Below are positions 3,368-35,622 of a DNA stretch of 40,587 bases, piece by piece; position 1 is the stretch's first letter; the number at the start of each line of letters is the position of its first letter. The stretch comes from a virus. Lineage: Duplodnaviria > Heunggongvirae > Uroviricota > Caudoviricetes. The stretch spans positions 1 through 40,587 of IMG/VR virus record IMGVR_UViG_2563366988_000007. One strand, 5' to 3'. The notes under the pieces are model-generated. The model searched no databases and was not told the DNA's origin. It saw only the letters and a program-made list of their open reading frames with translations. Position numbers and translations under genes: made by a program.

Positions 3368-3395
3368 ACCCGCAAAATATTGCGGGCTTTTTTTT
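3368..3395 (+). terminator. Intrinsic terminator oriented on + strand (stem cccgcaa/ttgcggg plus T8)
   Basis: acccgcaaaatattgcgggctttttttt; T-tract only on + side. Confidence 0.45.
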
Positions 3396-6300
3396 AACGT
3401 TCTTCCAGAGACTGAATCCGCTCTTTTATCTTATCCATTTCTCTGCGCTGCCATGCTGCCTCGATATAGAATAAGAGATCAGGTCTGACCCCCCATCTAG
3501 ATCCTGCTGGCGTTATTTCAACGCGCTCAATGATGTCTTCTATTACCATCACTGGATTATCATCCTCATCAACAATGATGCTCCCGTCATTATCAGTCAG
3601 CGGCATTTCCCTTTGGCCAGTAATGACGTCATCATATACTGCGGGATAATCGTCATAGCAAAGAAAGGCATAGCGGCATGTTGTGCTTTCTTCTTCCATG
3701 AGTCCGTGAGAAATAAGAACATCACGAAGTTGCTGCGCGATTACACCATGATGTATCCTCGCCCCTTCTTCCCCCTTTATAGCGACAGCGTTCAGCCATT
3801 TATAAGCGATATACCTGACGTCACCCCAGGCATCCAGCAATGCTTCGTCAGGAGAGACCGGCTCTGTCTTTAATGTTCCGTCACTGGTAACCACAGGATT
3901 GGAGCCAAGATAAACTGTCGAGAACCTGTTTCCCGGACCACCAAGAGCATTTACATTATCAAGATAAGGTTTAACATCTCCGTTCTCAAAAAGATGTTCG
4001 AGTGCGTTATATACCGCGCGACGTGGAGTACTGCTTCCGGAACCATGCAACGTTATCATTGCACCATCTGCTGAAGACGTTGTTTCACCGCCGCTAACGA
4101 TTAATCTCTGAGCGGTAACATCATCAGACGGTACTTTCTTCGCAATAATGGCGTAATTACCCTCAAGTTTGACTTCCGCGCGAACTTGTCCTGATGTACC
4201 TGCATGGACAGTCAGTGACTGGACGGCAACATCATCTGTGAAATCAACGGGTACAGGAACCGTCCTCACGCCTGACGTCGACATAAAAGTAGGAAGCGTT
4301 CTGTTAGGAGTGGCTCCGTAGACAAAATCCCTTGAAACAAATTCTTCCTGTTTAATTTTCACCCTGAAACAATACAAATCAGCCGGGTGACCATCGTGAA
4401 CATAAGGATATTTTCTGTTGTTATCCCCTATGCTCCATGGGTTTAGAAAGTCTTCCCCACCGAAAATGTAGTACAGCCAGTTGTCTTTGATACAAACTGA
4501 ACCAACACCAACCGCAGAGTTAACTATTCCGCCCTGATAAATCTGATCAGTAACATTAACCCACTCTACATTATCCAGACTCCACTCATTGACGTTAACT
4601 CTGGTCATAAATGTTCTTGGATAATTTCCTGCATAACGGTTATCAGGTTCTCCTCCTTCCCACTCACCAAATGCGCGCTCACTGCCAAAAATAATCAGCT
4701 CATCGCCAACTTTGGCAAAAGGAAGGTTTGAGTGATGAACATTATTTGGGAAGCGAAGAGAATTCCATGATGTACCTAAATCAGAGCTTCTGTGCAATGA
4801 ACTACCGGGTTGAGTACTTAATGTCCCCCTGGTCGTCAGATACAGAATGCCATCATAATATTTTACACATGGCTCAGATGCATTCGCCTCATATTCTACA
4901 GGTATGCGTCTGCGAACAAAGCTACCAGGAGAACCGAAAGCATCAGAGAAATAGAGTATCCCAAGCTCGCGTGGACCAATATCACCATTATGGTAGCCAA
5001 CAGCAAAACTGTTATCGCTAATCGTCGCAAAACTGTGAATCTCAGTAACAGGAGTGCTTCCGTCAACAAAAGAAGGAATAGTTCCAAGACTGGTTTTTCT
5101 CCATGGTGACGAGTGAAATGATGTACCAAAACTCCAGTATCTACCCTCGTTATTCTGATCCACATCCTGGGTATTTTGCGTCGTAACTGTAAAAGTATTT
5201 TTATCAATAACAGTAGTCACCGTCATATTCCCGGTAACACCTGTAACACCAGAGTTTGAGAAGTTGACAAAATCACCAGCAAATAATCCGTGATCAGTAA
5301 TGCGAATATAAGCGACTTGCTGATTTGCTGCTTTCGTTATACCACCATAAACGCGAAGGCTGCGACTCATTGGGCGATCCCACAACTCTGCAACCTGCAG
5401 TTTATTTCCGCTCACGGTCCGCGTCTCAATTACAGCAAAAAGGCGATTTCTGACAACCCCCATACTCATGCAGTGATAGTTAACTGTGGGATAGTTTTCA
5501 TGTAAATCTGTAAGCCATTCCGGCGTTGTCCAGGTCTTCCCGTCATCTCCTGAGCGAACCCATGCAACATGGAGGTTATTTACACCATGGCGGTCTCCAG
5601 CCATAAAAGGCGCATAGATGACATTGTCATATACAAACGTTTTATCCTGCGTCCAGGCGTTGTACCACGGTGTATCTGTAATTTTAAATAACTCTCCCTG
5701 GATAAAATCTTCAGAAGCATAAAAAAGAGGCTGGCCCGGTATTCTCTCAAATAAAAAACGAGCATTTTTAAATCGACTGACATCCGGAAGAGTTGATACT
5801 TTAAAAGTAAGCCCTAATCCGTCAATTTTATAACCTGGAGATGAGGCTTCAAGGCACGCGCTTATTGCAGTGGAATCGTCATTTATACCATCACCAACAG
5901 CTCCAAAATCTTTGGGGCTAATAGCATCACGCATTTTATCCTGGAACGTTCGGTACACAGCCCCAGAACCATACTGAATAAACCAACCAAAACCACCAAC
6001 AACCCCGGCGATTGCAGCATCGACATAATTACGCATTGAGCGATTATTTACAGCGTCCTGCTCAAATGATGGATCTGCAAGGTTAGAAATTTTGTTTTGC
6101 TTTGCATCGTAATATTTTGCAAGCAAAGATGGTTTCATCAATGCACGTCTGAACCACCCAAAACATTGCTGGATCAGCATCGTCAGGTAGTCAAAGGCAT
6201 CTTCATGCACTTCGGGGAAAAATTTTCCCTGATTGCGAAGGTCTGTCTCCTGCACTACATCAAGCACACGATCTATCGTAATTCGCCATCCAGTAGCAAG

Positions 6301-6513
6301 CGGAGACGGAAGAACCACAGAACCGCCACTATAAGTGCCCGCCCCAGTTACCGTATAACCGGTATCCAGAACCAATTCTGTTACGTTCCCGTTCAGGTCA
6401 GACACCTGAACAACCAGGTCTGATTTTCTGAAAATTCGAAAAGTATACGGAAACGATGTCGTAACGCCGTTACCGGTGTATTCGTTGTGGTCAACTTCGG
6501 TTGAGACCGTCAT
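3394..6513 (-). CDS. Tailspike/depolymerase: epsilon15-type N-terminal anchor, beta-helix-like central domain, C-terminal intramolecular chaperone (peptidase S74-like)
   Basis: N-term MTVSTEVDHNEYTGNGVTTSFPY; FGAVGDGINDDSTAI motif; Asp-box-like SGDDGKTW and SSDLGTSW; C-terminal SDGTLK cleavage-type motif. Confidence 0.8.
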   Translation of the reverse strand: MTVSTEVDHNEYTGNGVTTSFPYTFRIFRKSDLVVQVSDLNGNVTELVLDTGYTVTGAGTYSGGSVVLPSPLATGWRITIDRVLDVVQETDLRNQGKFFPEVHEDAFDYLTMLIQQCFGWFRRALMKPSLLAKYYDAKQNKISNLADPSFEQDAVNNRSMRNYVDAAIAGVVGGFGWFIQYGSGAVYRTFQDKMRDAISPKDFGAVGDGINDDSTAISACLEASSPGYKIDGLGLTFKVSTLPDVSRFKNARFLFERIPGQPLFYASEDFIQGELFKITDTPWYNAWTQDKTFVYDNVIYAPFMAGDRHGVNNLHVAWVRSGDDGKTWTTPEWLTDLHENYPTVNYHCMSMGVVRNRLFAVIETRTVSGNKLQVAELWDRPMSRSLRVYGGITKAANQQVAYIRITDHGLFAGDFVNFSNSGVTGVTGNMTVTTVIDKNTFTVTTQNTQDVDQNNEGRYWSFGTSFHSSPWRKTSLGTIPSFVDGSTPVTEIHSFATISDNSFAVGYHNGDIGPRELGILYFSDAFGSPGSFVRRRIPVEYEANASEPCVKYYDGILYLTTRGTLSTQPGSSLHRSSDLGTSWNSLRFPNNVHHSNLPFAKVGDELIIFGSERAFGEWEGGEPDNRYAGNYPRTFMTRVNVNEWSLDNVEWVNVTDQIYQGGIVNSAVGVGSVCIKDNWLYYIFGGEDFLNPWSIGDNNRKYPYVHDGHPADLYCFRVKIKQEEFVSRDFVYGATPNRTLPTFMSTSGVRTVPVPVDFTDDVAVQSLTVHAGTSGQVRAEVKLEGNYAIIAKKVPSDDVTAQRLIVSGGETTSSADGAMITLHGSGSSTPRRAVYNALEHLFENGDVKPYLDNVNALGGPGNRFSTVYLGSNPVVTSDGTLKTEPVSPDEALLDAWGDVRYIAYKWLNAVAIKGEEGARIHHGVIAQQLRDVLISHGLMEEESTTCRYAFLCYDDYPAVYDDVITGQREMPLTDNDGSIIVDEDDNPVMVIEDIIERVEITPAGSRWGVRPDLLFYIEAAWQRREMDKIKERIQSLEER

Positions 6514-6617
6514 GTTAAATCTCCAGATAGTCGCAGCACCCGTTGCGCCGCATATCTGGTTATTCTATTACCTGTAAAACCACATATGGATAGAAAGGCT
6601 GTAAATACGAATAGATA

Positions 6618-6632
6618 TTACCTTTCAGGTAA
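6618..6632. promoter_or_regulatory. Operator-like palindrome TTACC-N5-GGTAA (ttacctttcaggtaa)
   Basis: Perfect 5+5 inverted repeat; identical 15-mer at 25228. Confidence 0.5.
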
Positions 6633-6669
6633 TTTGCAAAACGTGCTGGATAGCAAACAAATTATTTGC

Positions 6670-6689
6670 TACTGTATAAATATACAGTT
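6670..6689. promoter_or_regulatory. LexA box (SOS box) tACTGTataaatatACAGtt
   Basis: CTGT-N8(AT-rich)-ACAG matches LexA consensus; 20 nt upstream of SD/ATG of 6709 gene. Confidence 0.7.
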
Positions 6690-6708
6690 ATTGCATGGAG
6701 AAGATAAG

Positions 6709-6966
6709 ATGCAGCAGTATCACTATCCACTGGAAGACGGATTTACCGAAAGGATTCACACGCCGGGAGGCGTCAGGTCACTGGTGGAGGGATCGCACTT
6801 GATGAAATTACTCCGGGATCTCGATAAGGATGGATTTAATGTCGATGGCCCACTTGCCGAACTGACTGCACTGATTAACTACGTCACCAGCTCACAGATG
6901 TCTATGCGGGATCTGCAAACACATCTCGACTATTGTGCCGAACAATTACGAAAACAAACCAGATAA
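6709..6966 (+). CDS. Small SOS-regulated protein, candidate antirepressor (Tum-like logic); paralogous to C-terminal domain of adjacent Bro-N protein
   Basis: GGAG SD 8 nt upstream of ATG; LexA box in promoter; shared motifs HTPGGV/HSPSGV, AEL, RDLQTH/RDIQTH with 7282-7977 C-terminus. Confidence 0.55.
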   Translation: MQQYHYPLEDGFTERIHTPGGVRSLVEGSHLMKLLRDLDKDGFNVDGPLAELTALINYVTSSQMSMRDLQTHLDYCAEQLRKQTR

Positions 6967-7104
6967 GGTTTGCAATTACCAAGTGGAGTGCTTATATTTA
7001 CCTTTGAGATAAATTTACATCGCACTCCTCTTGTGCCATAGTAATCGGGCACTGGCAAAATCCAGTGCCGGGATTGGCGTCCCGGATTACTAAAAGGCGC
7101 ATTC

Positions 7105-7124
7105 ACCGCGCAAGCGGTTTTTTT
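7105..7124 (+). terminator. Intrinsic terminator (accgc-gcaa-gcggt plus T7)
   Basis: caccgcgcaagcggttttttt. Confidence 0.5.
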
Positions 7125-7281
7125 ATGCGTATAGCACGGCCACATTCGTATTATGGTGGGCTGTGTGGGGGCACCGAAAGGTGCGCCGGGTCCTTTTAGC
7201 CGGTTACGCCAACCCTGCACAGTTCACCACCAACCGATTGGCGTCGGTAGTGGTGATTAACCAGACTAAAAGGTAACCACT

Positions 7282-7977
7282 ATGACAGCTACAAAAAGCA
7301 CGTCCATTTTTTCTTTCGAATCCCAAGCCGATATACGGGTAATCGTCATTAATGGTGAGCCATGGTTTATCGCTTCAGATGTTTGTCGGGCTATAGGCAT
7401 AGCAAACCATCGAGATGCTGTTCGAAAACTTGATGATGATGAGAAGGGCGTCGCTTCAACCGACACCCCTGGCGGTGAGCAAGAATCGATCATCATCTCC
7501 GAGTCAGGCCTCTACACACTGATCCTCCGCTGCCGCGACGCAGTGACACCAGGCACTATCCCCTACCGCTTTCGTAAATGGGTTACAGGTGAGGTTCTTC
7601 CTCAGATCCGCCGCACCGGAAGCTACATTAAAAACTCGCTCCCGCAGGAAGAACGCATAAAGATGGTTGCCGACCAGGTAGCCAACGCCACGGCGTCAGC
7701 AGTAATGCAGGCGATGAAGATAGAGAACAAAACCTACAGCGCCCCGCTGAAGCCCGGCTACCGCAGCCTGATTCACTCGCCGTCTGGTGTTCTCGGCCTG
7801 ACGGAAAACTCACTGCTGATGAATCTGCTGAACCAGTTACAGGACGACGGGCACGACGTATCGGGCGCGGCGGCGGAGCTGACCACCATGTTCTGCTACA
7901 TCGTCGGTGTGAGCAAATGCCTGCGTGATATCCAGACCCACGCGGAATACATCAACGACAAGGCAGGGTTCTTCTGA
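7282..7977 (+). CDS. Antirepressor, Bro-N domain protein with C-terminal domain shared with 6709-6966
   Basis: Bro-N signature IRVIVINGEPWFIASDVCRAIGI...SESGLYTLIL; SD aaaagg. Confidence 0.75.
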   Translation: MTATKSTSIFSFESQADIRVIVINGEPWFIASDVCRAIGIANHRDAVRKLDDDEKGVASTDTPGGEQESIIISESGLYTLILRCRDAVTPGTIPYRFRKWVTGEVLPQIRRTGSYIKNSLPQEERIKMVADQVANATASAVMQAMKIENKTYSAPLKPGYRSLIHSPSGVLGLTENSLLMNLLNQLQDDGHDVSGAAAELTTMFCYIVGVSKCLRDIQTHAEYINDKAGFF

Positions 7978-8021
7978 CGGGCGGTGGCACAGGGATGTGC
8001 CTTTAAATAATTCTGTACAGA

Positions 8022-8050
8022 TTGCAGACTGTGGGTGAATAGCGTACTAT
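8022..8050 (+). promoter_or_regulatory. Putative sigma70 promoter (-35 TTGCAG, 17-bp spacer, -10 TACTAT) abutting operator palindrome
   Basis: Hexamers read directly; drives 8077 ORF. Confidence 0.35.
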
Positions 8051-8064
8051 TACCTTAAAGGTAA
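8050..8064. promoter_or_regulatory. Operator-like palindrome TTACC-N5-GGTAA (ttaccttaaaggtaa)
   Basis: Perfect inverted repeat immediately upstream of SD aaggagg. Confidence 0.5.
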
Positions 8065-8076
8065 AGGAGGCGCGAT

Positions 8077-8244
8077 ATGACAGCGTTGAAAAATCGTACT
8101 CAGCACAATGAACAAGCCAAGCAATGCTGGGATGTCATTGGAAAAGTTATGCTTGGCCGCGCAAGCAAAGAGCGCGACAAGGATATGGTTTACCAGACAG
8201 GAACATCTTTCAGCGACTTCAAGGCGGCATTTCGCTCCAAATAG
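8077..8244 (+). CDS. Small protein (55 aa), unknown function; not in ORF track (below length cutoff)
   Basis: Strong SD AAGGAGG 7 nt upstream of ATG; translation MTALKNRTQHNEQAKQCWDVIGKVMLGRASKERDKDMVYQTGTSFSDFKAAFRSK. Confidence 0.4.
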   Translation: MTALKNRTQHNEQAKQCWDVIGKVMLGRASKERDKDMVYQTGTSFSDFKAAFRSK

Positions 8245-9151: not shown

Positions 9152-11626
9152 TTATTGCGGAGTGACATCCTGTGGTCGCCACCAGTATGTCTGGTTAAAC
9201 TCTTTCTTCGAACGTTGCTCCATTTTACGCAAATAACCTGGTGAAAAATACTCCTGCATCTGGTTAAAGATCATGTGATCGAGAGCCGCCTTCAAGTACC
9301 AGAGATTCGCACCTGGCATCAAACCTTTCCCCAGCTTCACCAGATCACCACCAGTCTGCTCACTCTTCCCTTCCACAGCATTTAACGGTATGCCCTGAGC
9401 AATCTTCACTACGTCATCAACCAGACCAGCTACCGGGCCAAGCATCGACGCCAGCGCGCCGCTTCCGTACCTAGTGTGATCTGACAATAAAAAGTCACCG
9501 TAAAGGCCAAGGCCACCACCTTTCAGTAGAGCACCAAGCCAGAATTTTGCGGCACCTTCTCCTGTCATCTCTCGAGGATTACGACCAGACGCAAGGTCGT
9601 TAAGTTGCTGCGACAAAGCGCCAAGAATGGTCGTACTGGCAATAAACGTCGCAATATATGCCGCACGCCCACCAGCAGACGGCATACCCATAGCGCGTGA
9701 CCAGTGACGCATAACAACCGAGATAGGGAACGATTTAAACAGGAAAACACTTCTCGTTAATTCACCTTTCCATGTTCCACGCTGAATACCAGAACCGGTT
9801 ATCAGTTGCTCACGTGCTCCCGGTGTAATAACAGCCATATCAACTTCTTCAGTTACGGCACCGAGCAGTTTACGCATTGCCTCAAATTTCACGCGTTCAG
9901 GCTCACCAAGATGTTTAACTGCTGAATCAGGGATACGCATAATGCTTTCCGGTGTCAGCATCGTATTATTACCGTTCCCCCAGTCCTCCTGTTTCGCCAG
10001 CTTCCATACGCTCCAGTCTGTGTCAGTAATCCCTTTGCTTTTCAGGATACGAAAATCAGAGTCATCGAGGCTACGAAGGTCTGGTGTCCGTGACACTACT
10101 TCTCCCAGGCTTCCCATCATGGTTACGCCATAGGCGCGCTTGTGCGCATCTGACCATGCTGTAAGCCCACTGGCACGCATTACCGCCGTTGCCGCCCAAC
10201 GAGACACTGACGGCCCCATATTATCCATCGCCCAGCGGTTAACGCTGCCAAGTAGAGATTCCATCGCCAGACCAGCGCGGCGCGCCCGCGCAAGTTCTGT
10301 ACGGTTCGTTGGGTCCATAGCTTCAAGCTGGTTGCGGAATAACTGGTTCATTGGAAGGTTGGTAACCTTCGCAGACAGATACATGGTTCCAAGATCAGAG
10401 AACGATGACAGCAACGCGGATCCGAGTCTGCTGGCAACCAGCCAGTTGCGGATATTGTCAGACCATCGCGCGATGTGCGGATTCGCTACAGGCTGTGTCT
10501 TTCCGGAAATAAAGTTGTACAGATTCTCTGTGTTGTTCGCCAGCCGCTCGACTTTACCGGTTTTACTCGGGTTAGCTGTTGCCGTTTCTGCCTTCACCTG
10601 ATCAAGAAGAGAGCGGAAAACATGATCGGGGTTTGGGCCATATGTTTCCACCAGTGCAATATCTTTACTGATACCTTCCAGGTGACCGACCATGATTTCC
10701 CATAGAGAGCGATCGCCATAAAGTTGCTGATATTGCAGATAGGAATCTGCATCTTTGAAATGTATCTGTCGTGATGCATTACCACGGTTAGCACGTGCGC
10801 CGGAAATTCGCATTCCGGTATCAGTAAGCTTATTCAGCCCACCAGTAGCGATCGTGTTATAAGCCTCTCCAAGAAATGAAGACAACTCGGCATCGTTCAT
10901 CAGTTGTCCATCGGCTCGGATATAATATTTGCGATCCAGCTTACCTATAACATCGCTAACCCACTTATCCTTTGATACTGCCCCAACCTTTTCCATAGAA
11001 TGATGTTGAGGGATCCCCCAGTTTTCGAGATAGCCAATGTCCCCACCAGCATCATTAAACCGGCGGCGCAGCAGCTCTGTAACTTCTCTCCACGCCTTAG
11101 CACCGTTTCTTGCTTTAGCATTGCCAGTATTTTGCCCCCGCATTTCATATACCAGGTCACGTACGCCCGCTTCATCTTCAAACAGACCAAAAAAGCGAGG
11201 ATCAACTGCTTCGAATGCCTCCTGCAATTGACTCAATGCATAATCACGGGTGGCTTTTGTTCTGGATTCAACAGAGAGGAAATTAGATTTACCGTCTGCA
11301 TTAAAAGCTATAGTACGGTTAAGAGCGCCAAGTTTCCCATCAGCCCCTTGATAGCTATTGATAAATTTATCCAATCTCTGACGCGCGGCTATAGTGAGAG
11401 CCACACGACGTTTCTTTAATGCCGCTTCTCGCTGTAATTCTTCAGATGCCAATTGTGCTGCTCGATATAGCCGCTCTGATTCGGAAAGTTGTCTCCACGA
11501 CATCGGGTCATCACGAGCAATGGAGCGCATATTTCGATAAATGCGGTCTTCAATGTTCTGTATTTCTCGCGCCGTTAACGTGCGCTGCGCCGCCTGCTGG
11601 ACCGCTTGTATACATTCCTGTCTCAT
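9152..11626 (-). CDS. Large internal virion/ejection protein
   Basis: 824-aa ORF in virion operon, T7 gp15/16-like position. Confidence 0.55.
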   Translation of the reverse strand: MRQECIQAVQQAAQRTLTAREIQNIEDRIYRNMRSIARDDPMSWRQLSESERLYRAAQLASEELQREAALKKRRVALTIAARQRLDKFINSYQGADGKLGALNRTIAFNADGKSNFLSVESRTKATRDYALSQLQEAFEAVDPRFFGLFEDEAGVRDLVYEMRGQNTGNAKARNGAKAWREVTELLRRRFNDAGGDIGYLENWGIPQHHSMEKVGAVSKDKWVSDVIGKLDRKYYIRADGQLMNDAELSSFLGEAYNTIATGGLNKLTDTGMRISGARANRGNASRQIHFKDADSYLQYQQLYGDRSLWEIMVGHLEGISKDIALVETYGPNPDHVFRSLLDQVKAETATANPSKTGKVERLANNTENLYNFISGKTQPVANPHIARWSDNIRNWLVASRLGSALLSSFSDLGTMYLSAKVTNLPMNQLFRNQLEAMDPTNRTELARARRAGLAMESLLGSVNRWAMDNMGPSVSRWAATAVMRASGLTAWSDAHKRAYGVTMMGSLGEVVSRTPDLRSLDDSDFRILKSKGITDTDWSVWKLAKQEDWGNGNNTMLTPESIMRIPDSAVKHLGEPERVKFEAMRKLLGAVTEEVDMAVITPGAREQLITGSGIQRGTWKGELTRSVFLFKSFPISVVMRHWSRAMGMPSAGGRAAYIATFIASTTILGALSQQLNDLASGRNPREMTGEGAAKFWLGALLKGGGLGLYGDFLLSDHTRYGSGALASMLGPVAGLVDDVVKIAQGIPLNAVEGKSEQTGGDLVKLGKGLMPGANLWYLKAALDHMIFNQMQEYFSPGYLRKMEQRSKKEFNQTYWWRPQDVTPQ

Positions 11627-25227: not shown

Positions 25228-25242
25228 TTACCTTTCAGGTAA
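25228..25242. promoter_or_regulatory. Operator-like palindrome TTACC-N5-GGTAA (ttacctttcaggtaa) preceded by TTGACA
   Basis: Identical to 6618 site; TTGACA at 25206-25211. Confidence 0.5.
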
Positions 25243-25564: not shown

Positions 25565-25641
25565 GTGGCATTAGCTCAGTTGGACAGAGCAACCGCCTTC
25601 TAAGCGGTTGGTCGCAGGTTCGAATCCTGCATGCCACGCCA
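25565..25641 (+). tRNA. tRNA-Arg, anticodon UCU
   Basis: Cloverleaf folded by hand: acceptor GTGGCAT/ATGCCAC, D-arm GCTC/GAGC, anticodon stem ACCGC/GCGGT with loop CTTCTAA, T-arm GCAGG-TTCGAAT-CCTGC, discriminator G, encoded CCA. Confidence 0.85.
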
Positions 25642-32447: not shown

Positions 32448-32462
32448 TTACCCCTTAGGTAA
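32448..32462. promoter_or_regulatory. Operator-like palindrome TTACC-N5-GGTAA (ttaccccttaggtaa)
   Basis: Perfect inverted repeat 4 nt upstream of start codon of 32097-32444. Confidence 0.45.
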
Positions 32463-32509
32463 TTAAAAACCACATAAGACACGAAATCAATAGATTTTAG
32501 AATATTTTA

Positions 32510-32524
32510 TTACCTCTAAGGTAA
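32510..32524. promoter_or_regulatory. Operator-like palindrome TTACC-N5-GGTAA (ttacctctaaggtaa)
   Basis: Perfect inverted repeat downstream of P gene. Confidence 0.45.
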
Positions 32525-34448: not shown

Positions 34449-34463
34449 TTACCTTTGAGGTAC
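34449..34463. promoter_or_regulatory. Operator-like palindrome, imperfect (ttacctttgaggtac)
   Basis: 4 of 5 match in right arm. Confidence 0.35.
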
Positions 34464-34471
34464 GAATAGAT

Positions 34472-34496
34472 ATGAAAAGACCGCCGGGTGGCGGTC
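34472..34496 (-). terminator. tR1-like intrinsic terminator downstream of cro (gaccgcc-gggt-ggcggtc then T-tract on minus strand)
   Basis: Read directly. Confidence 0.45.
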
Positions 34497-34518
34497 TACA
34501 GAGGGTTGTAGCTGGATA

Positions 34519-34749
34519 TCATGAGTAGAAGAAGTATGCCAGTTCTGCTTTTGAGCGCAGCCATTGTCTTGTTTTACAGGCTTTAAAAAGCCCATTCATC
34601 AATACCTTACCTGGCATTTTGCGCTTACCTGTTAAGTGAGTCTGGATATAGTGACTCGTCGTTCCGGCTTCCTGTGCGAAGGCTTCACGCTCATCCGGAG
34701 TAAGTGCAAGCCAGTGCTTTTTGAAATCGAAATGTCCGTTATCGCTCAT
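34519..34749 (-). CDS. Cro-like regulator (divergent from repressor)
   Basis: 76 aa, position divergent to repressor across operator cluster. Confidence 0.5.
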   Translation of the reverse strand: MSDNGHFDFKKHWLALTPDEREAFAQEAGTTSHYIQTHLTGKRKMPGKVLMNGLFKACKTRQWLRSKAELAYFFYS

Positions 34750-34785
34750 AGCTATTGCCTGATATTTATTTCAGATAATAAATAT

Positions 34786-34841
34786 TCACCCATAAGGTAA
34801 CAAAAATCAAGGATAGTTACCTACGGGGTGCATTTACCTGT
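34786..34841. promoter_or_regulatory. Immunity operator cluster: three overlapping TTACC-N5-GGTAA-type sites (34786-34800 imperfect, 34809-34823 half, 34827-34841 perfect)
   Basis: tcacccataaggtaa / ttacctacggggtgc / ttacctgttgggtaa between cro and repressor. Confidence 0.55.
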
Positions 34842-34903
34842 TGGGTAATATTGCTTTAAATTGAATCATCTACTGATTCATATATGAGGCGATTTTCCAG
34901 AAA

Positions 34904-35488
34904 ATGAAAAGTATCCAGGACGTCCGCAGGCAAAATCTCAACGACTTGATCGACCGTGAATTCAATGGTGTTCAGACGCGGATGGCAGAAAAACTTGGAA
35001 CTCAGGCAAATCTGGTAAACCGCTGGGCTCTTGGCAAGAAGGTTATCGGCGACCAGGTTGCGCGAAAAATTGAAGCTGCCGCCAATAAACCCCGTAACTG
35101 GCTTGATATCGATCGCTCGCTTTCTCAGGAAGGTTTTCAGCCTGTCGGCCCAAGCGACATTGGTCAGCTGGCGGCTCACAACCTGGAACGCTGGATGAGC
35201 GAAAGCCGCGACCTTTCAACACAGGGAAAACTTCACCGCGCATCCGGCGTCGCCCAGGTGACAATCAGCCGCCTGTTAAACAATGAGGTCAGCGTTTCCA
35301 TTTCCACCCTGGAGAATGTTGCATCCGCATTCGGGCGTCACGGCTATGAATTACTGATTCACCCGCACGACCCTGCGACTATCAACTATGACCGCTCGCG
35401 CTACGCATTGTTACCCGAAACAGAGAAGGCAAAGATCGAAAGTTACATTGAATTTGTCATCAGCCAGAACGAAAAAAACAAACAATAA
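34904..35488 (+). CDS. Immunity repressor, tandem HTH (XRE-type) domains, no LexA-like S24 autocleavage domain
   Basis: Two HTH-like segments (QTRMAEKLGTQANLVNRW and ASGVAQVTISRLLNNE); no GDSM/Ser-Lys peptidase motif. Confidence 0.7.
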   Translation: MKSIQDVRRQNLNDLIDREFNGVQTRMAEKLGTQANLVNRWALGKKVIGDQVARKIEAAANKPRNWLDIDRSLSQEGFQPVGPSDIGQLAAHNLERWMSESRDLSTQGKLHRASGVAQVTISRLLNNEVSVSISTLENVASAFGRHGYELLIHPHDPATINYDRSRYALLPETEKAKIESYIEFVISQNEKNKQ

Positions 35489-35545: not shown

Positions 35546-35622
35546 TTACCTTATGGGTAATTTTTTTAACTCATATCTATTGACATCAAACCAGATACGC
35601 ATAATCATTACCTCAACGGTAA
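35546..35622 (+). promoter_or_regulatory. Early promoter with two operator palindromes (35546-35560 ttaccttatgggtaa; 35608-35622 ttacctcaacggtaa) and -35 TTGACA at 35579
   Basis: Perfect palindromes flanking TTGACA; precedes early plus-strand operon. Confidence 0.5.

Follow-up and report, generated by a model that had tools for sequence, protein, structure and literature searches.

C4 antisense RNA in described phage immunity systems

The C4 antisense RNA, a family listed in Rfam (Weinberg et al. 2010, PMC2864571), belongs to the immI immunity region of phages P1 and P7. In the P1 record, immI runs in the order promoter, a1, b1, c4, a2, and b2, and the record labels the last two as targets of C4, for 'repression of icd ant translation'. 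Here, we analyzed a stretch of 40,587 nucleotides (nt), positions 1 to 40,587 of the IMG/VR virus record IMGVR_UViG_2563366988_000007 (hereafter the window), and focused on the non-coding region upstream of a gene for a Bro-N antirepressor (Ant). Positions 7014-7281 very probably form a P1 immI-type secondary-immunity module of a phiV10/epsilon15-like prophage, in which C4 base-pairs at the ribosome-binding site of this gene. The locus is an unannotated member of a catalogued phage immunity module and does not represent a new kind of mechanism. An earlier note on the window, made without database searches, had described nested stems, a terminator, and a repeated decamer here, and had likened the layout to the P1 c4/ant and P22 sar/ant control regions.

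The P1 record gives a1 as TTGACAG, b1 as GTTAGTGC, and a c4 of 77 nt, and b2 overlaps the Shine-Dalgarno sequence of icd. The C4 elements that recognize these targets are named a', located in a junction, and b', located in the loop of the second hairpin. For the P1 mechanism, we drew on the annotation of the P1 GenBank record and a secondary summary (PMC8546580).

The closest experimentally studied relative is the Gifsy-1 isrK-orf45(STnc1160)-anrP locus of Salmonella. There, anrP is transcribed from the isrK promoter upstream of it, and deletion of the promoter region abolishes transcription (Hershko-Shalev et al. 2016, PMC4825925). The mRNA produced by read-through is translationally silent, and IsrK supplied in trans raised anrP translation 139-fold and a transcriptional fusion 8-fold (PMC4825925). 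The substitutions G28A and G31A in isrK, and C162U and C159U downstream, each caused derepression alone; the combinations G28A/C162U and G31A/C159U restored the wild-type (silent) conformer and lowered basal expression again (PMC4825925). A stable processed RNA, STnc1160, was detected, and Hfq binding together with trans-activation of the downstream antirepressor gene is known only for Gifsy-1 (PMC4825925). The published model is framed as translation of orf45 and not as C4 control.

Additionally, the APSE phages of Hamiltonella (LR794147, APSE-7) have the same annotated order of isrK, C4 (with a' and b'), and Bro-N gene, and, according to their authors, a' and b' match non-coding sequence ahead of the Bro-N gene (bioRxiv 10.1101/2020.03.17.996009). 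The APSE a'/b' sequences are GTCTCAA/CCTTGTTAG, the host and phage lineage differ from those of the window, and there is no experimental work on that system. In P4 immunity (CI RNA, seqA, and seqC), a processed leader RNA pairs with repeated sites up- and downstream of itself; however, CI acts by transcription termination on replication genes and not on an antirepressor ribosome-binding site. The Gifsy-1 authors cited P4 seqA/CI as a structural analogue (PMC4825925).

Two RNA families upstream of the antirepressor gene

The whole window was scanned against Rfam, and three matches exceeded the gathering threshold: one tRNA, isrK, and C4 (Table 1). At 7036-7088, the c4-a1b1 model (RF03163) scores 45.1 bits, narrowly under its threshold of 46.7, and spans the same hairpins as the isrK model. 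As the multi-stem element and terminator of the earlier note match isrK and c4-a1b1, that element is the IsrK-type, or a1b1, leader. Its hairpins ggcactgg/ccagtgcc (7048-7055/7062-7069) and ccggga/tcccgg (7068-7073/7080-7085) both appear in the minimum-free-energy fold of 7036-7130, which reached -42.1 kcal/mol (z = -5.1, with 0 of 200 shuffles equally stable). The terminator was recovered by the scan where it had been placed, and the transcript of roughly 80 nt anticipated to end at 7124 agrees with the predicted IsrK-type RNA in both length and end point. The -10 element (nATAnT) of the predicted promoter is kept in 18 of 18 aligned homologues at a fixed distance from the RNA start, which probably lies at about 7049.

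The outer stem gtaatc/gattac, thought to enclose both hairpins, is present at 7041-7046/7085-7090 and in the fold, but it is not conserved. Over 18 homologues, 58% of the alignment cells are paired; the pairing is confined to the nearest relatives, among which there are zero compensatory changes, and the 5' arm shares positions with the conserved -10 hexamer (7037-7042), ahead of the probable RNA start. For these reasons, the outer stem was excluded from the conserved element; only transcripts starting further upstream could form it.

The further GC-rich hairpins of the earlier note are also present, although that description was incomplete: they are the C4 RNA itself. C4 has a 17-base-pair (bp) closing stem around two internal hairpins, an architecture reproduced by the minimum-free-energy fold, and 7145-7240 folds as a single three-helix RNA (-47.4 kcal/mol, z = -4.6). 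The mature RNA is predicted, from its homology with the P1 C4 of 77 nt, to span 7155-7231 (77 nt). A gap of 47 nt, with no icd-like open reading frame (ORF) inside, separates C4 from the ant ATG.

The strand of these matches bears on the suggested likeness to P22, in which a small RNA from the opposite strand would lie across the ant ribosome-binding site. A weak terminator-like site does occur on the - strand (7111-7097). However, all RNA family matches lie on the + strand, the sar family gave no Rfam match in 6500-8100 even at E up to 10, and the promoter scan predicted no - strand promoter over the module. Membership in the P22 sar/ant (mnt-arc-ant immI) type was rejected for lack of a sar match and of such a promoter, and sar-type control has a next to negligible probability.

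Table 1. Positions of the module elements and neighboring features in the window
Feature	Position	Strand	Description
Tailspike gene	3394-6513	-	
LexA (SOS) box TACTGTATAAATATACAGTT	6670-6689	+	Promoter region of the 85-aa gene; 1 mismatch to TACTGTATA-N5-ACAGTA
85-amino-acid (aa) gene ('SOS gene' of the earlier note)	6709-6966	+	Stand-alone paralogue of the Bro-N antirepressor C-terminal domain
Non-coding stretch between the 85-aa and Bro-N genes			315 nt; within the + strand block
Operator-like palindrome TTACCTTTGAGATAA	6998-7012		Abuts the -35 of the small-RNA promoter
Predicted sigma-70 promoter of the IsrK-like RNA	7014-7042	+	-35 TTTACA 7014-7019; 17-nt spacer with TG; -10 CATAGT 7037-7042
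IsrK-type small RNA (a1b1 leader of the c4 operon)	7049-7124	+	isrK RF01394, 77.9 bits (gathering 50), 76 nt
IsrK-type RNA hairpin 1	7049-7055/7062-7068	+	94% paired, 5 of 7 pairs compensatory
IsrK-type RNA hairpin 2	7069-7073/7080-7084	+	94% paired, nearly invariant; a1 (TTGGCG) in loop
a1, first GATTGGCGTC copy	7072-7081	+	Loop of hairpin 2; core TTGGCGT 7074-7080 complementary to a'; duplex -10.3 kcal/mol
b1, first ACTAAAAGG copy	7089-7097	+	Single-stranded between hairpin 2 and terminator; duplex with b' -9.7 kcal/mol
Intrinsic terminator	7105-7124	+	ACCGCGCAAGCGGT plus T-run, found by scan
C4 antisense RNA	7149-7234	+	RF01695, 77.7 bits (gathering 45), E = 1e-13; full-length, model positions 1-87
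b' CCTTTTAG	7192-7199	+	Loop of second C4 hairpin; pairs with b1 and b2
a' ACGCCAA	7206-7212	+	Single-stranded C4 junction; pairs with a1 and a2
Alternative hairpin	7224-7256	+	C4 closing-stem 3' arm TCACCAC (7224-7230) pairs with GTGGTGA (7250-7256)
a2, second GATTGGCGTC copy	7236-7245	+	TTGGCGT at 7238; 5 nt past the predicted C4 3' end; duplex -10.3 kcal/mol
b2, second ACTAAAAGG copy	7265-7273	+	Includes AAGG Shine-Dalgarno (7270-7273); 8 nt ahead of ATG 7282
Bro-N antirepressor gene (regulated), 231 aa	7282-7977	+	Pfam Bro-N 76.7 bits; phrog_130 'anti-repressor Ant' E = 2e-62
824-aa virion protein gene	9152-11626	-	

Elements shared by the leader, C4, and the antirepressor mRNA

Two repeats connect the IsrK-type RNA, C4, and the antirepressor leader. 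The decamer GATTGGCGTC, already noticed in the earlier note at these two places, occurs exactly twice in the window against 0.08 expected, and its second copy ends 23 nt ahead of the AAGG Shine-Dalgarno of ATG 7282. The second repeat, ACTAAAAGG, was missed there; besides its two sense copies, it has a reverse complement at 7192-7199. The window holds only three CTAAAAGG sites (two sense, one antisense), all within 185 nt. The C4 element b' is complementary to CTAAAAGG at 7090 and 7266 (exact 8-nt matches), and a' has exact 7-nt complementary matches at 7074 and 7238.

The predicted duplex between the C4 effector segment and the IsrK-like RNA reached -33.8 kcal/mol (shuffles, -20.7 +/- 3.2; 0 of 500 as good), and that with the ant leader reached -26.7 kcal/mol (shuffles, -17.4 +/- 3.4; 7 of 500 as good). 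When the whole leader was folded as one molecule, a1/b1 paired with a'/b' in cis.

Covariation of the module across phages

For the comparative test, we used 19 loci, comprising the window, 17 diverse fetched loci, and P1, with phiV10-like, Stx, SfV, and APSE phages among them. Relatives of the 281-nt region occur in 279 phage records, mostly of Stx-converting phages, and 941 of the 5,426 complete E. coli genomes gave megablast-level matches, some of them at 100% identity, as in APEC O1 (NC_008563, 2745167-2745447). The phiV10 element is 98.6% identical. Both isrK and C4 exceeded gathering in all 17 fetched non-P1 loci, and P1 gave c4-a1b1 and C4. Across the 19 loci, 98.4% of the cells in the C4 helices are paired and 11 pairs have changed on both sides, against 30-50% pairing in slid controls.

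The pairing elements vary together. Nine forms of a' were found (ACGCCAA, GTCTCAA, AGACCAA, AGGTCAA, GTGCAAA, GTAGCAA, CTGCGAA, GTGCTAA, and CTGTCAA), and most phages have a b' of their own; both the upstream and the downstream targets change along with the a' and b' of the C4 in the same phage. The phiV10-type and HEMP4-type phages have a common a' but unlike b' sequences. Both elements match by Watson-Crick pairing over 6 or more contiguous nt in 17 of the 19 cognate pairs versus 8 of the 342 non-cognate ones. The two cognate exceptions are a2 of SfV, which has a single mismatch, and b2 of a Klebsiella phage, which has a G-U pair. Wherever b2 matches over 6 or more contiguous nt, which is the case at 17 loci, the distance from its end to the start codon is 7-16 nt. 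The earlier note had named missing conservation of the paired positions in related phages as evidence against its element; the helices and the intermolecular pairings were instead found to covary.

The alternative hairpin at the 3' end of C4 is mutually exclusive with the folded C4 and places a2 in its loop. It is present in the minimum-free-energy fold of the whole leader, with 99.2% of the cells paired in the 19 loci and three compensatory pairs (in P1 and YYZ-2008), and it might have a role in the timing of C4 processing or in the presentation of a2.

These results also bear on an explanation without any regulatory RNA, in which a terminator of the SOS gene is followed by a structured 5' untranslated region and the repeats arose by chance. 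The repeats are indeed short, and three occurrences of CTAAAAGG were reached in 8 of 100 shuffles of the whole window. Nevertheless, isrK and C4 score about 28 and 33 bits above gathering, the three sites are packed into a short interval, the targets covary with the effector in 17 of 19 loci, the helices covary, and homologues have been characterized experimentally in P1 and Gifsy-1. Chance is accordingly a highly improbable explanation.

The alignment was also informative about the model published for Gifsy-1. Applied here as the main mechanism, the IsrK-type RNA would open the leader, the ORF at 7153-7260 (35 aa) would be translated, and coupling would drive the antirepressor; the C4-shaped region would then matter as mRNA structure around the ORF and not as a free antisense repressor. 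Start-codon and stop mutations of orf45 cut the IsrK-dependent activation of anrP (PMC4825925), the equivalent ATG, inside C4, is invariant in 19 of 19 loci, and the ORF of the window stops 21 nt ahead of the ant ATG. However, the equivalent is not conserved as an ORF: its length ranges from 8 to more than 52 codons over the 19 loci, and in six of them, including P1, it stops 8-15 codons in, inside C4. The invariant ATGG also belongs to the covarying 17-bp closing stem, and the variation tracks base pairing, not codons. Moreover, the Gifsy-1 paper itself detects the stable processed STnc1160 here (PMC4825925), and in the window b2 lies directly on the ant Shine-Dalgarno. A coding explanation for 7153-7260 was rejected on ORF length, and the orf45 model is quite unlikely to describe the main mechanism of this locus.

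As a separate observation, several public records annotate long coding sequences that cross isrK and C4 into the downstream gene. They are SfV orf37 'immunity region', yong2 'Ash family protein', Lys8385Vzw 'peptidase', 2H10 'putative antirepressor', and Stx2_EH1910 'hypothetical protein', and the coordinates listed for them are L003 1125-1961, L006 988-1671, L011 825-1970, L010 1116-1661, and L015 1128-1790. They are probably mis-annotations.

Correspondence with Gifsy-1 and P1

In Gifsy-1 (L019, 34131-34316, - strand), the STnc1160/orf45 stretch is itself an Rfam C4 match (69 bits). The isrK and C4 matches are equally spaced in Gifsy-1 and the window, the promoter geometry is alike, and a1, a', and a2 are identical (TTGGCGT/ACGCCAA), whereas the b element is CGGTGAT in Gifsy-1 and CCTTTTAG in the window. 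The Gifsy-1 b2 (ATCACCGG) overlaps the GGAGG Shine-Dalgarno of anrP, an antirepressor-like gene. Counting residues along the Gifsy-1 sequence places G28 and G31 in a1 (TTGGCGT) and C159 and C162 in a' (ACGCCAA), a mapping onto the P1 nomenclature that we infer ourselves. Because the compensatory mutations sit on a1 and a', the a1:a' pairing has been verified experimentally in a close homologue. Together with STnc1160 as a C4 match and b2 over the anrP Shine-Dalgarno, they indicate that IsrK and P1 c4 represent one and the same module; this makes explicit how the system studied in Gifsy-1 is linked to the classical one of P1. The two loci differ in genomic place, as the Gifsy-1 module lies between Q and anrP (nin/late region) and that of the window between the tailspike and injection-protein genes, and the Rfam scan gave no isrJ match downstream of the module in the window.

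The likeness to P1 c4/ant control turned out to be stronger than the earlier note had claimed, since isrK and C4 above gathering and the colinearity with P1 amount to homology. The window follows the P1 immI order on a single strand: a promoter beside a repressor operator (a candidate in the window), two leader hairpins, a terminator-like hairpin, the same C4 fold with a' and b' in the same positions, and an antirepressor as the end target. However, the P1 a'/b' (CTGTCAA/CACTAAC) are wholly different from those of the window, so a different immunity specificity is expected. P1 has icd, whereas in the window, as in most fetched homologues, icd is absent and b2 sits on the Shine-Dalgarno of the antirepressor itself; icd is thus a feature of the P1 operon and not of the RNA family. 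The P1 antirepressor is Ant1/Ant2, whereas that of the window is the 231-aa Bro-N protein, and P1 is a plasmid prophage, whereas the phage of the window is an integrated podovirus-type with a SOS-box gene directly upstream of the module.

Over this region, the phiV10 record shows only a terminator and a misc_feature 'similar to hypothetical protein', with C4 unannotated, and the E. coli RefSeq matches list only the Bro-N gene under the 281-bp match. The value of recognizing C4 is mostly practical: it offers an explanation for how the antirepressor is silenced in such prophages, and the a'/b' sequences predict immunity-specificity classes.

Proposed mechanism and its weighing

By analogy with P1 and Gifsy-1, transcription would start at about 7049 from the sigma-70 promoter, which a likely repressor operator adjoins. 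Most transcripts would end at the terminator and yield the 76-nt IsrK-type RNA bearing a1 and b1. Read-through transcripts would carry C4 (~7155-7231), which would be excised from them (in P1, by RNase P at the 5' end). The a' (junction) and b' (loop) of C4 would then pair with a2 and b2 on the antirepressor mRNA leader, and ribosome loading would be blocked because b2 contains the Shine-Dalgarno. As a result, no Bro-N antirepressor would be made and the main repressor would stay active; this block probably keeps the prophage silent. The a1/b1 elements, in cis or as free IsrK-type RNA, would compete for the same C4 surfaces, and an excess of a1/b1 RNA would relieve the block, as shown for Gifsy-1. 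If the C4 reading is true, altering b' from CCTTTTAG to, for example, CCTAATAG is expected to cause derepression.

The level at which C4 acts could also be transcription, either by premature termination upon pairing with a1/b1 and a2/b2, as in P4 CI with seqA/seqC, or by Rho-dependent polarity after a translation block, as in P1. Biere, Citron and Schuster reportedly found in 1992 that control by P1 c4 leads in the end to transcription terminating prematurely, upstream of ant. In the window, no terminator was predicted between C4 and the ant ATG. For Gifsy-1, IsrK in trans did raise the transcriptional fusion, and the structural parallel with P4 seqA/CI was noted, but the translational effect was far larger, 139-fold versus 8-fold (PMC4825925). 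Since b2 covers this Shine-Dalgarno here and in almost every homologue, we consider translation the primary target and a mainly transcriptional action unlikely. The two modes are not exclusive; termination may add to the translational block.

Several points weigh against C4 control as proposed. All function for this phage, namely the processing, the translational block in vivo, the decoy action, and the effect on induction, is transferred from experiments on P1 and Gifsy-1. P1 acts via icd, with translational coupling and Rho-dependent polarity; because the locus has no icd, C4 binding is assumed to lead directly to the loss of Ant. Activation in Gifsy-1 was explained by its authors through translation of orf45, an ORF overlapping C4, and not by C4 titration (PMC4825925), so the direction and weight of the IsrK effect here can only be inferred. 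Read-through past the terminator is likewise assumed. Finally, the pairing elements are short, at 7-8 nt and about -10 kcal/mol each, and the duplex with the ant leader was better than most but not all of its shuffles.

Genomic setting and a possible SOS input

The window is the genome of a phiV10/TL-2011b/epsilon15-like temperate phage (Uetakevirus), a small integrated podovirus-type prophage. The 1.7 kb surrounding the module are 94-99% identical to the closest phiV10/TL-2011b/epsilon15-like phages. The module belongs to a short + strand gene block that sits between the tailspike gene and the 824-aa virion (injection-protein) gene, both on the - strand.

The 85-aa protein is 43% identical to residues 150-223 of Ant over 74 aa (E = 3e-16), and phrog_450 and the anti-repressor family phrog_1760 are each matched by both proteins. 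Pfam gave nothing above threshold for the 85-aa protein, the 55-aa ORF at 8077, or the 193-aa ORF at 8124. Given this paralogy and the LexA box in its promoter region, the locus pairs a stand-alone, SOS-controlled Ant C-terminal domain with a C4-controlled full-length Ant.

A tentative and rather doubtful extension would wire the SOS response and the C4 gate in series, with SOS-driven read-through feeding a1/b1 decoy RNA, titrating C4, and unlocking Bro-N translation. The LexA-box promoter at about 6670 may drive the 85-aa gene and also the leader RNA, as the + strand terminator scan predicted none between 6966, the end of the 85-aa gene, and 7105. If this were true, a prophage whose repressor lacks a self-cleavage domain would possess a two-stage, RNA-thresholded induction switch, and the outer stem (in upstream-initiated transcripts only) and the hairpin at 7224-7256 would tune the roles of the transcript as decoy, C4 precursor, and mRNA.

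The operator-like palindrome beside the small-RNA promoter belongs to a dispersed set. Allowing up to 2 mismatches, TTACCT-N3-AGGTAA has 15 copies in the window against 0.9 expected, located at 6618-6632, 6998-7012, 8050-8064, 25228-25242, 32448-32524, 34449-34848, and 35546-35622. The copies cluster around the gene for a 194-aa HTH_3 protein without an S24 peptidase domain (34904-35488), and single copies occur in the SOS-gene promoter region, at the -35 of the IsrK-type promoter, and ahead of the 55-aa gene at 8077. The HTH_3 protein looks like the main repressor with dispersed operators, similar to P1 C1 and the operator at the c4 promoter; its binding to the palindromes is a prediction from the sequence.

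Some minor features were also recorded. The 10-mer CCGCGCAAGC of the IsrK terminator stem (7106-7115) recurs exactly at 8157-8166, within the 55-aa ORF (8077-8244), probably by chance. In phage Nil2 (L008), an sRNA-Xcc1 match (RF02221, 79.3 bits) lies at 2325-2408 between antA and antB, and the Nil2 record describes the ant gene as 'disrupted by a putative bacterial retrotransposon'; the sRNA-Xcc1 family is also mentioned for some APSE phages (bioRxiv 10.1101/2020.03.17.996009). The window further carries a phage-borne tRNA-Arg (anticodon TCT) at 25565-25641, and the palindrome copy about 320 nt upstream of it (25228-25242) is perfect.

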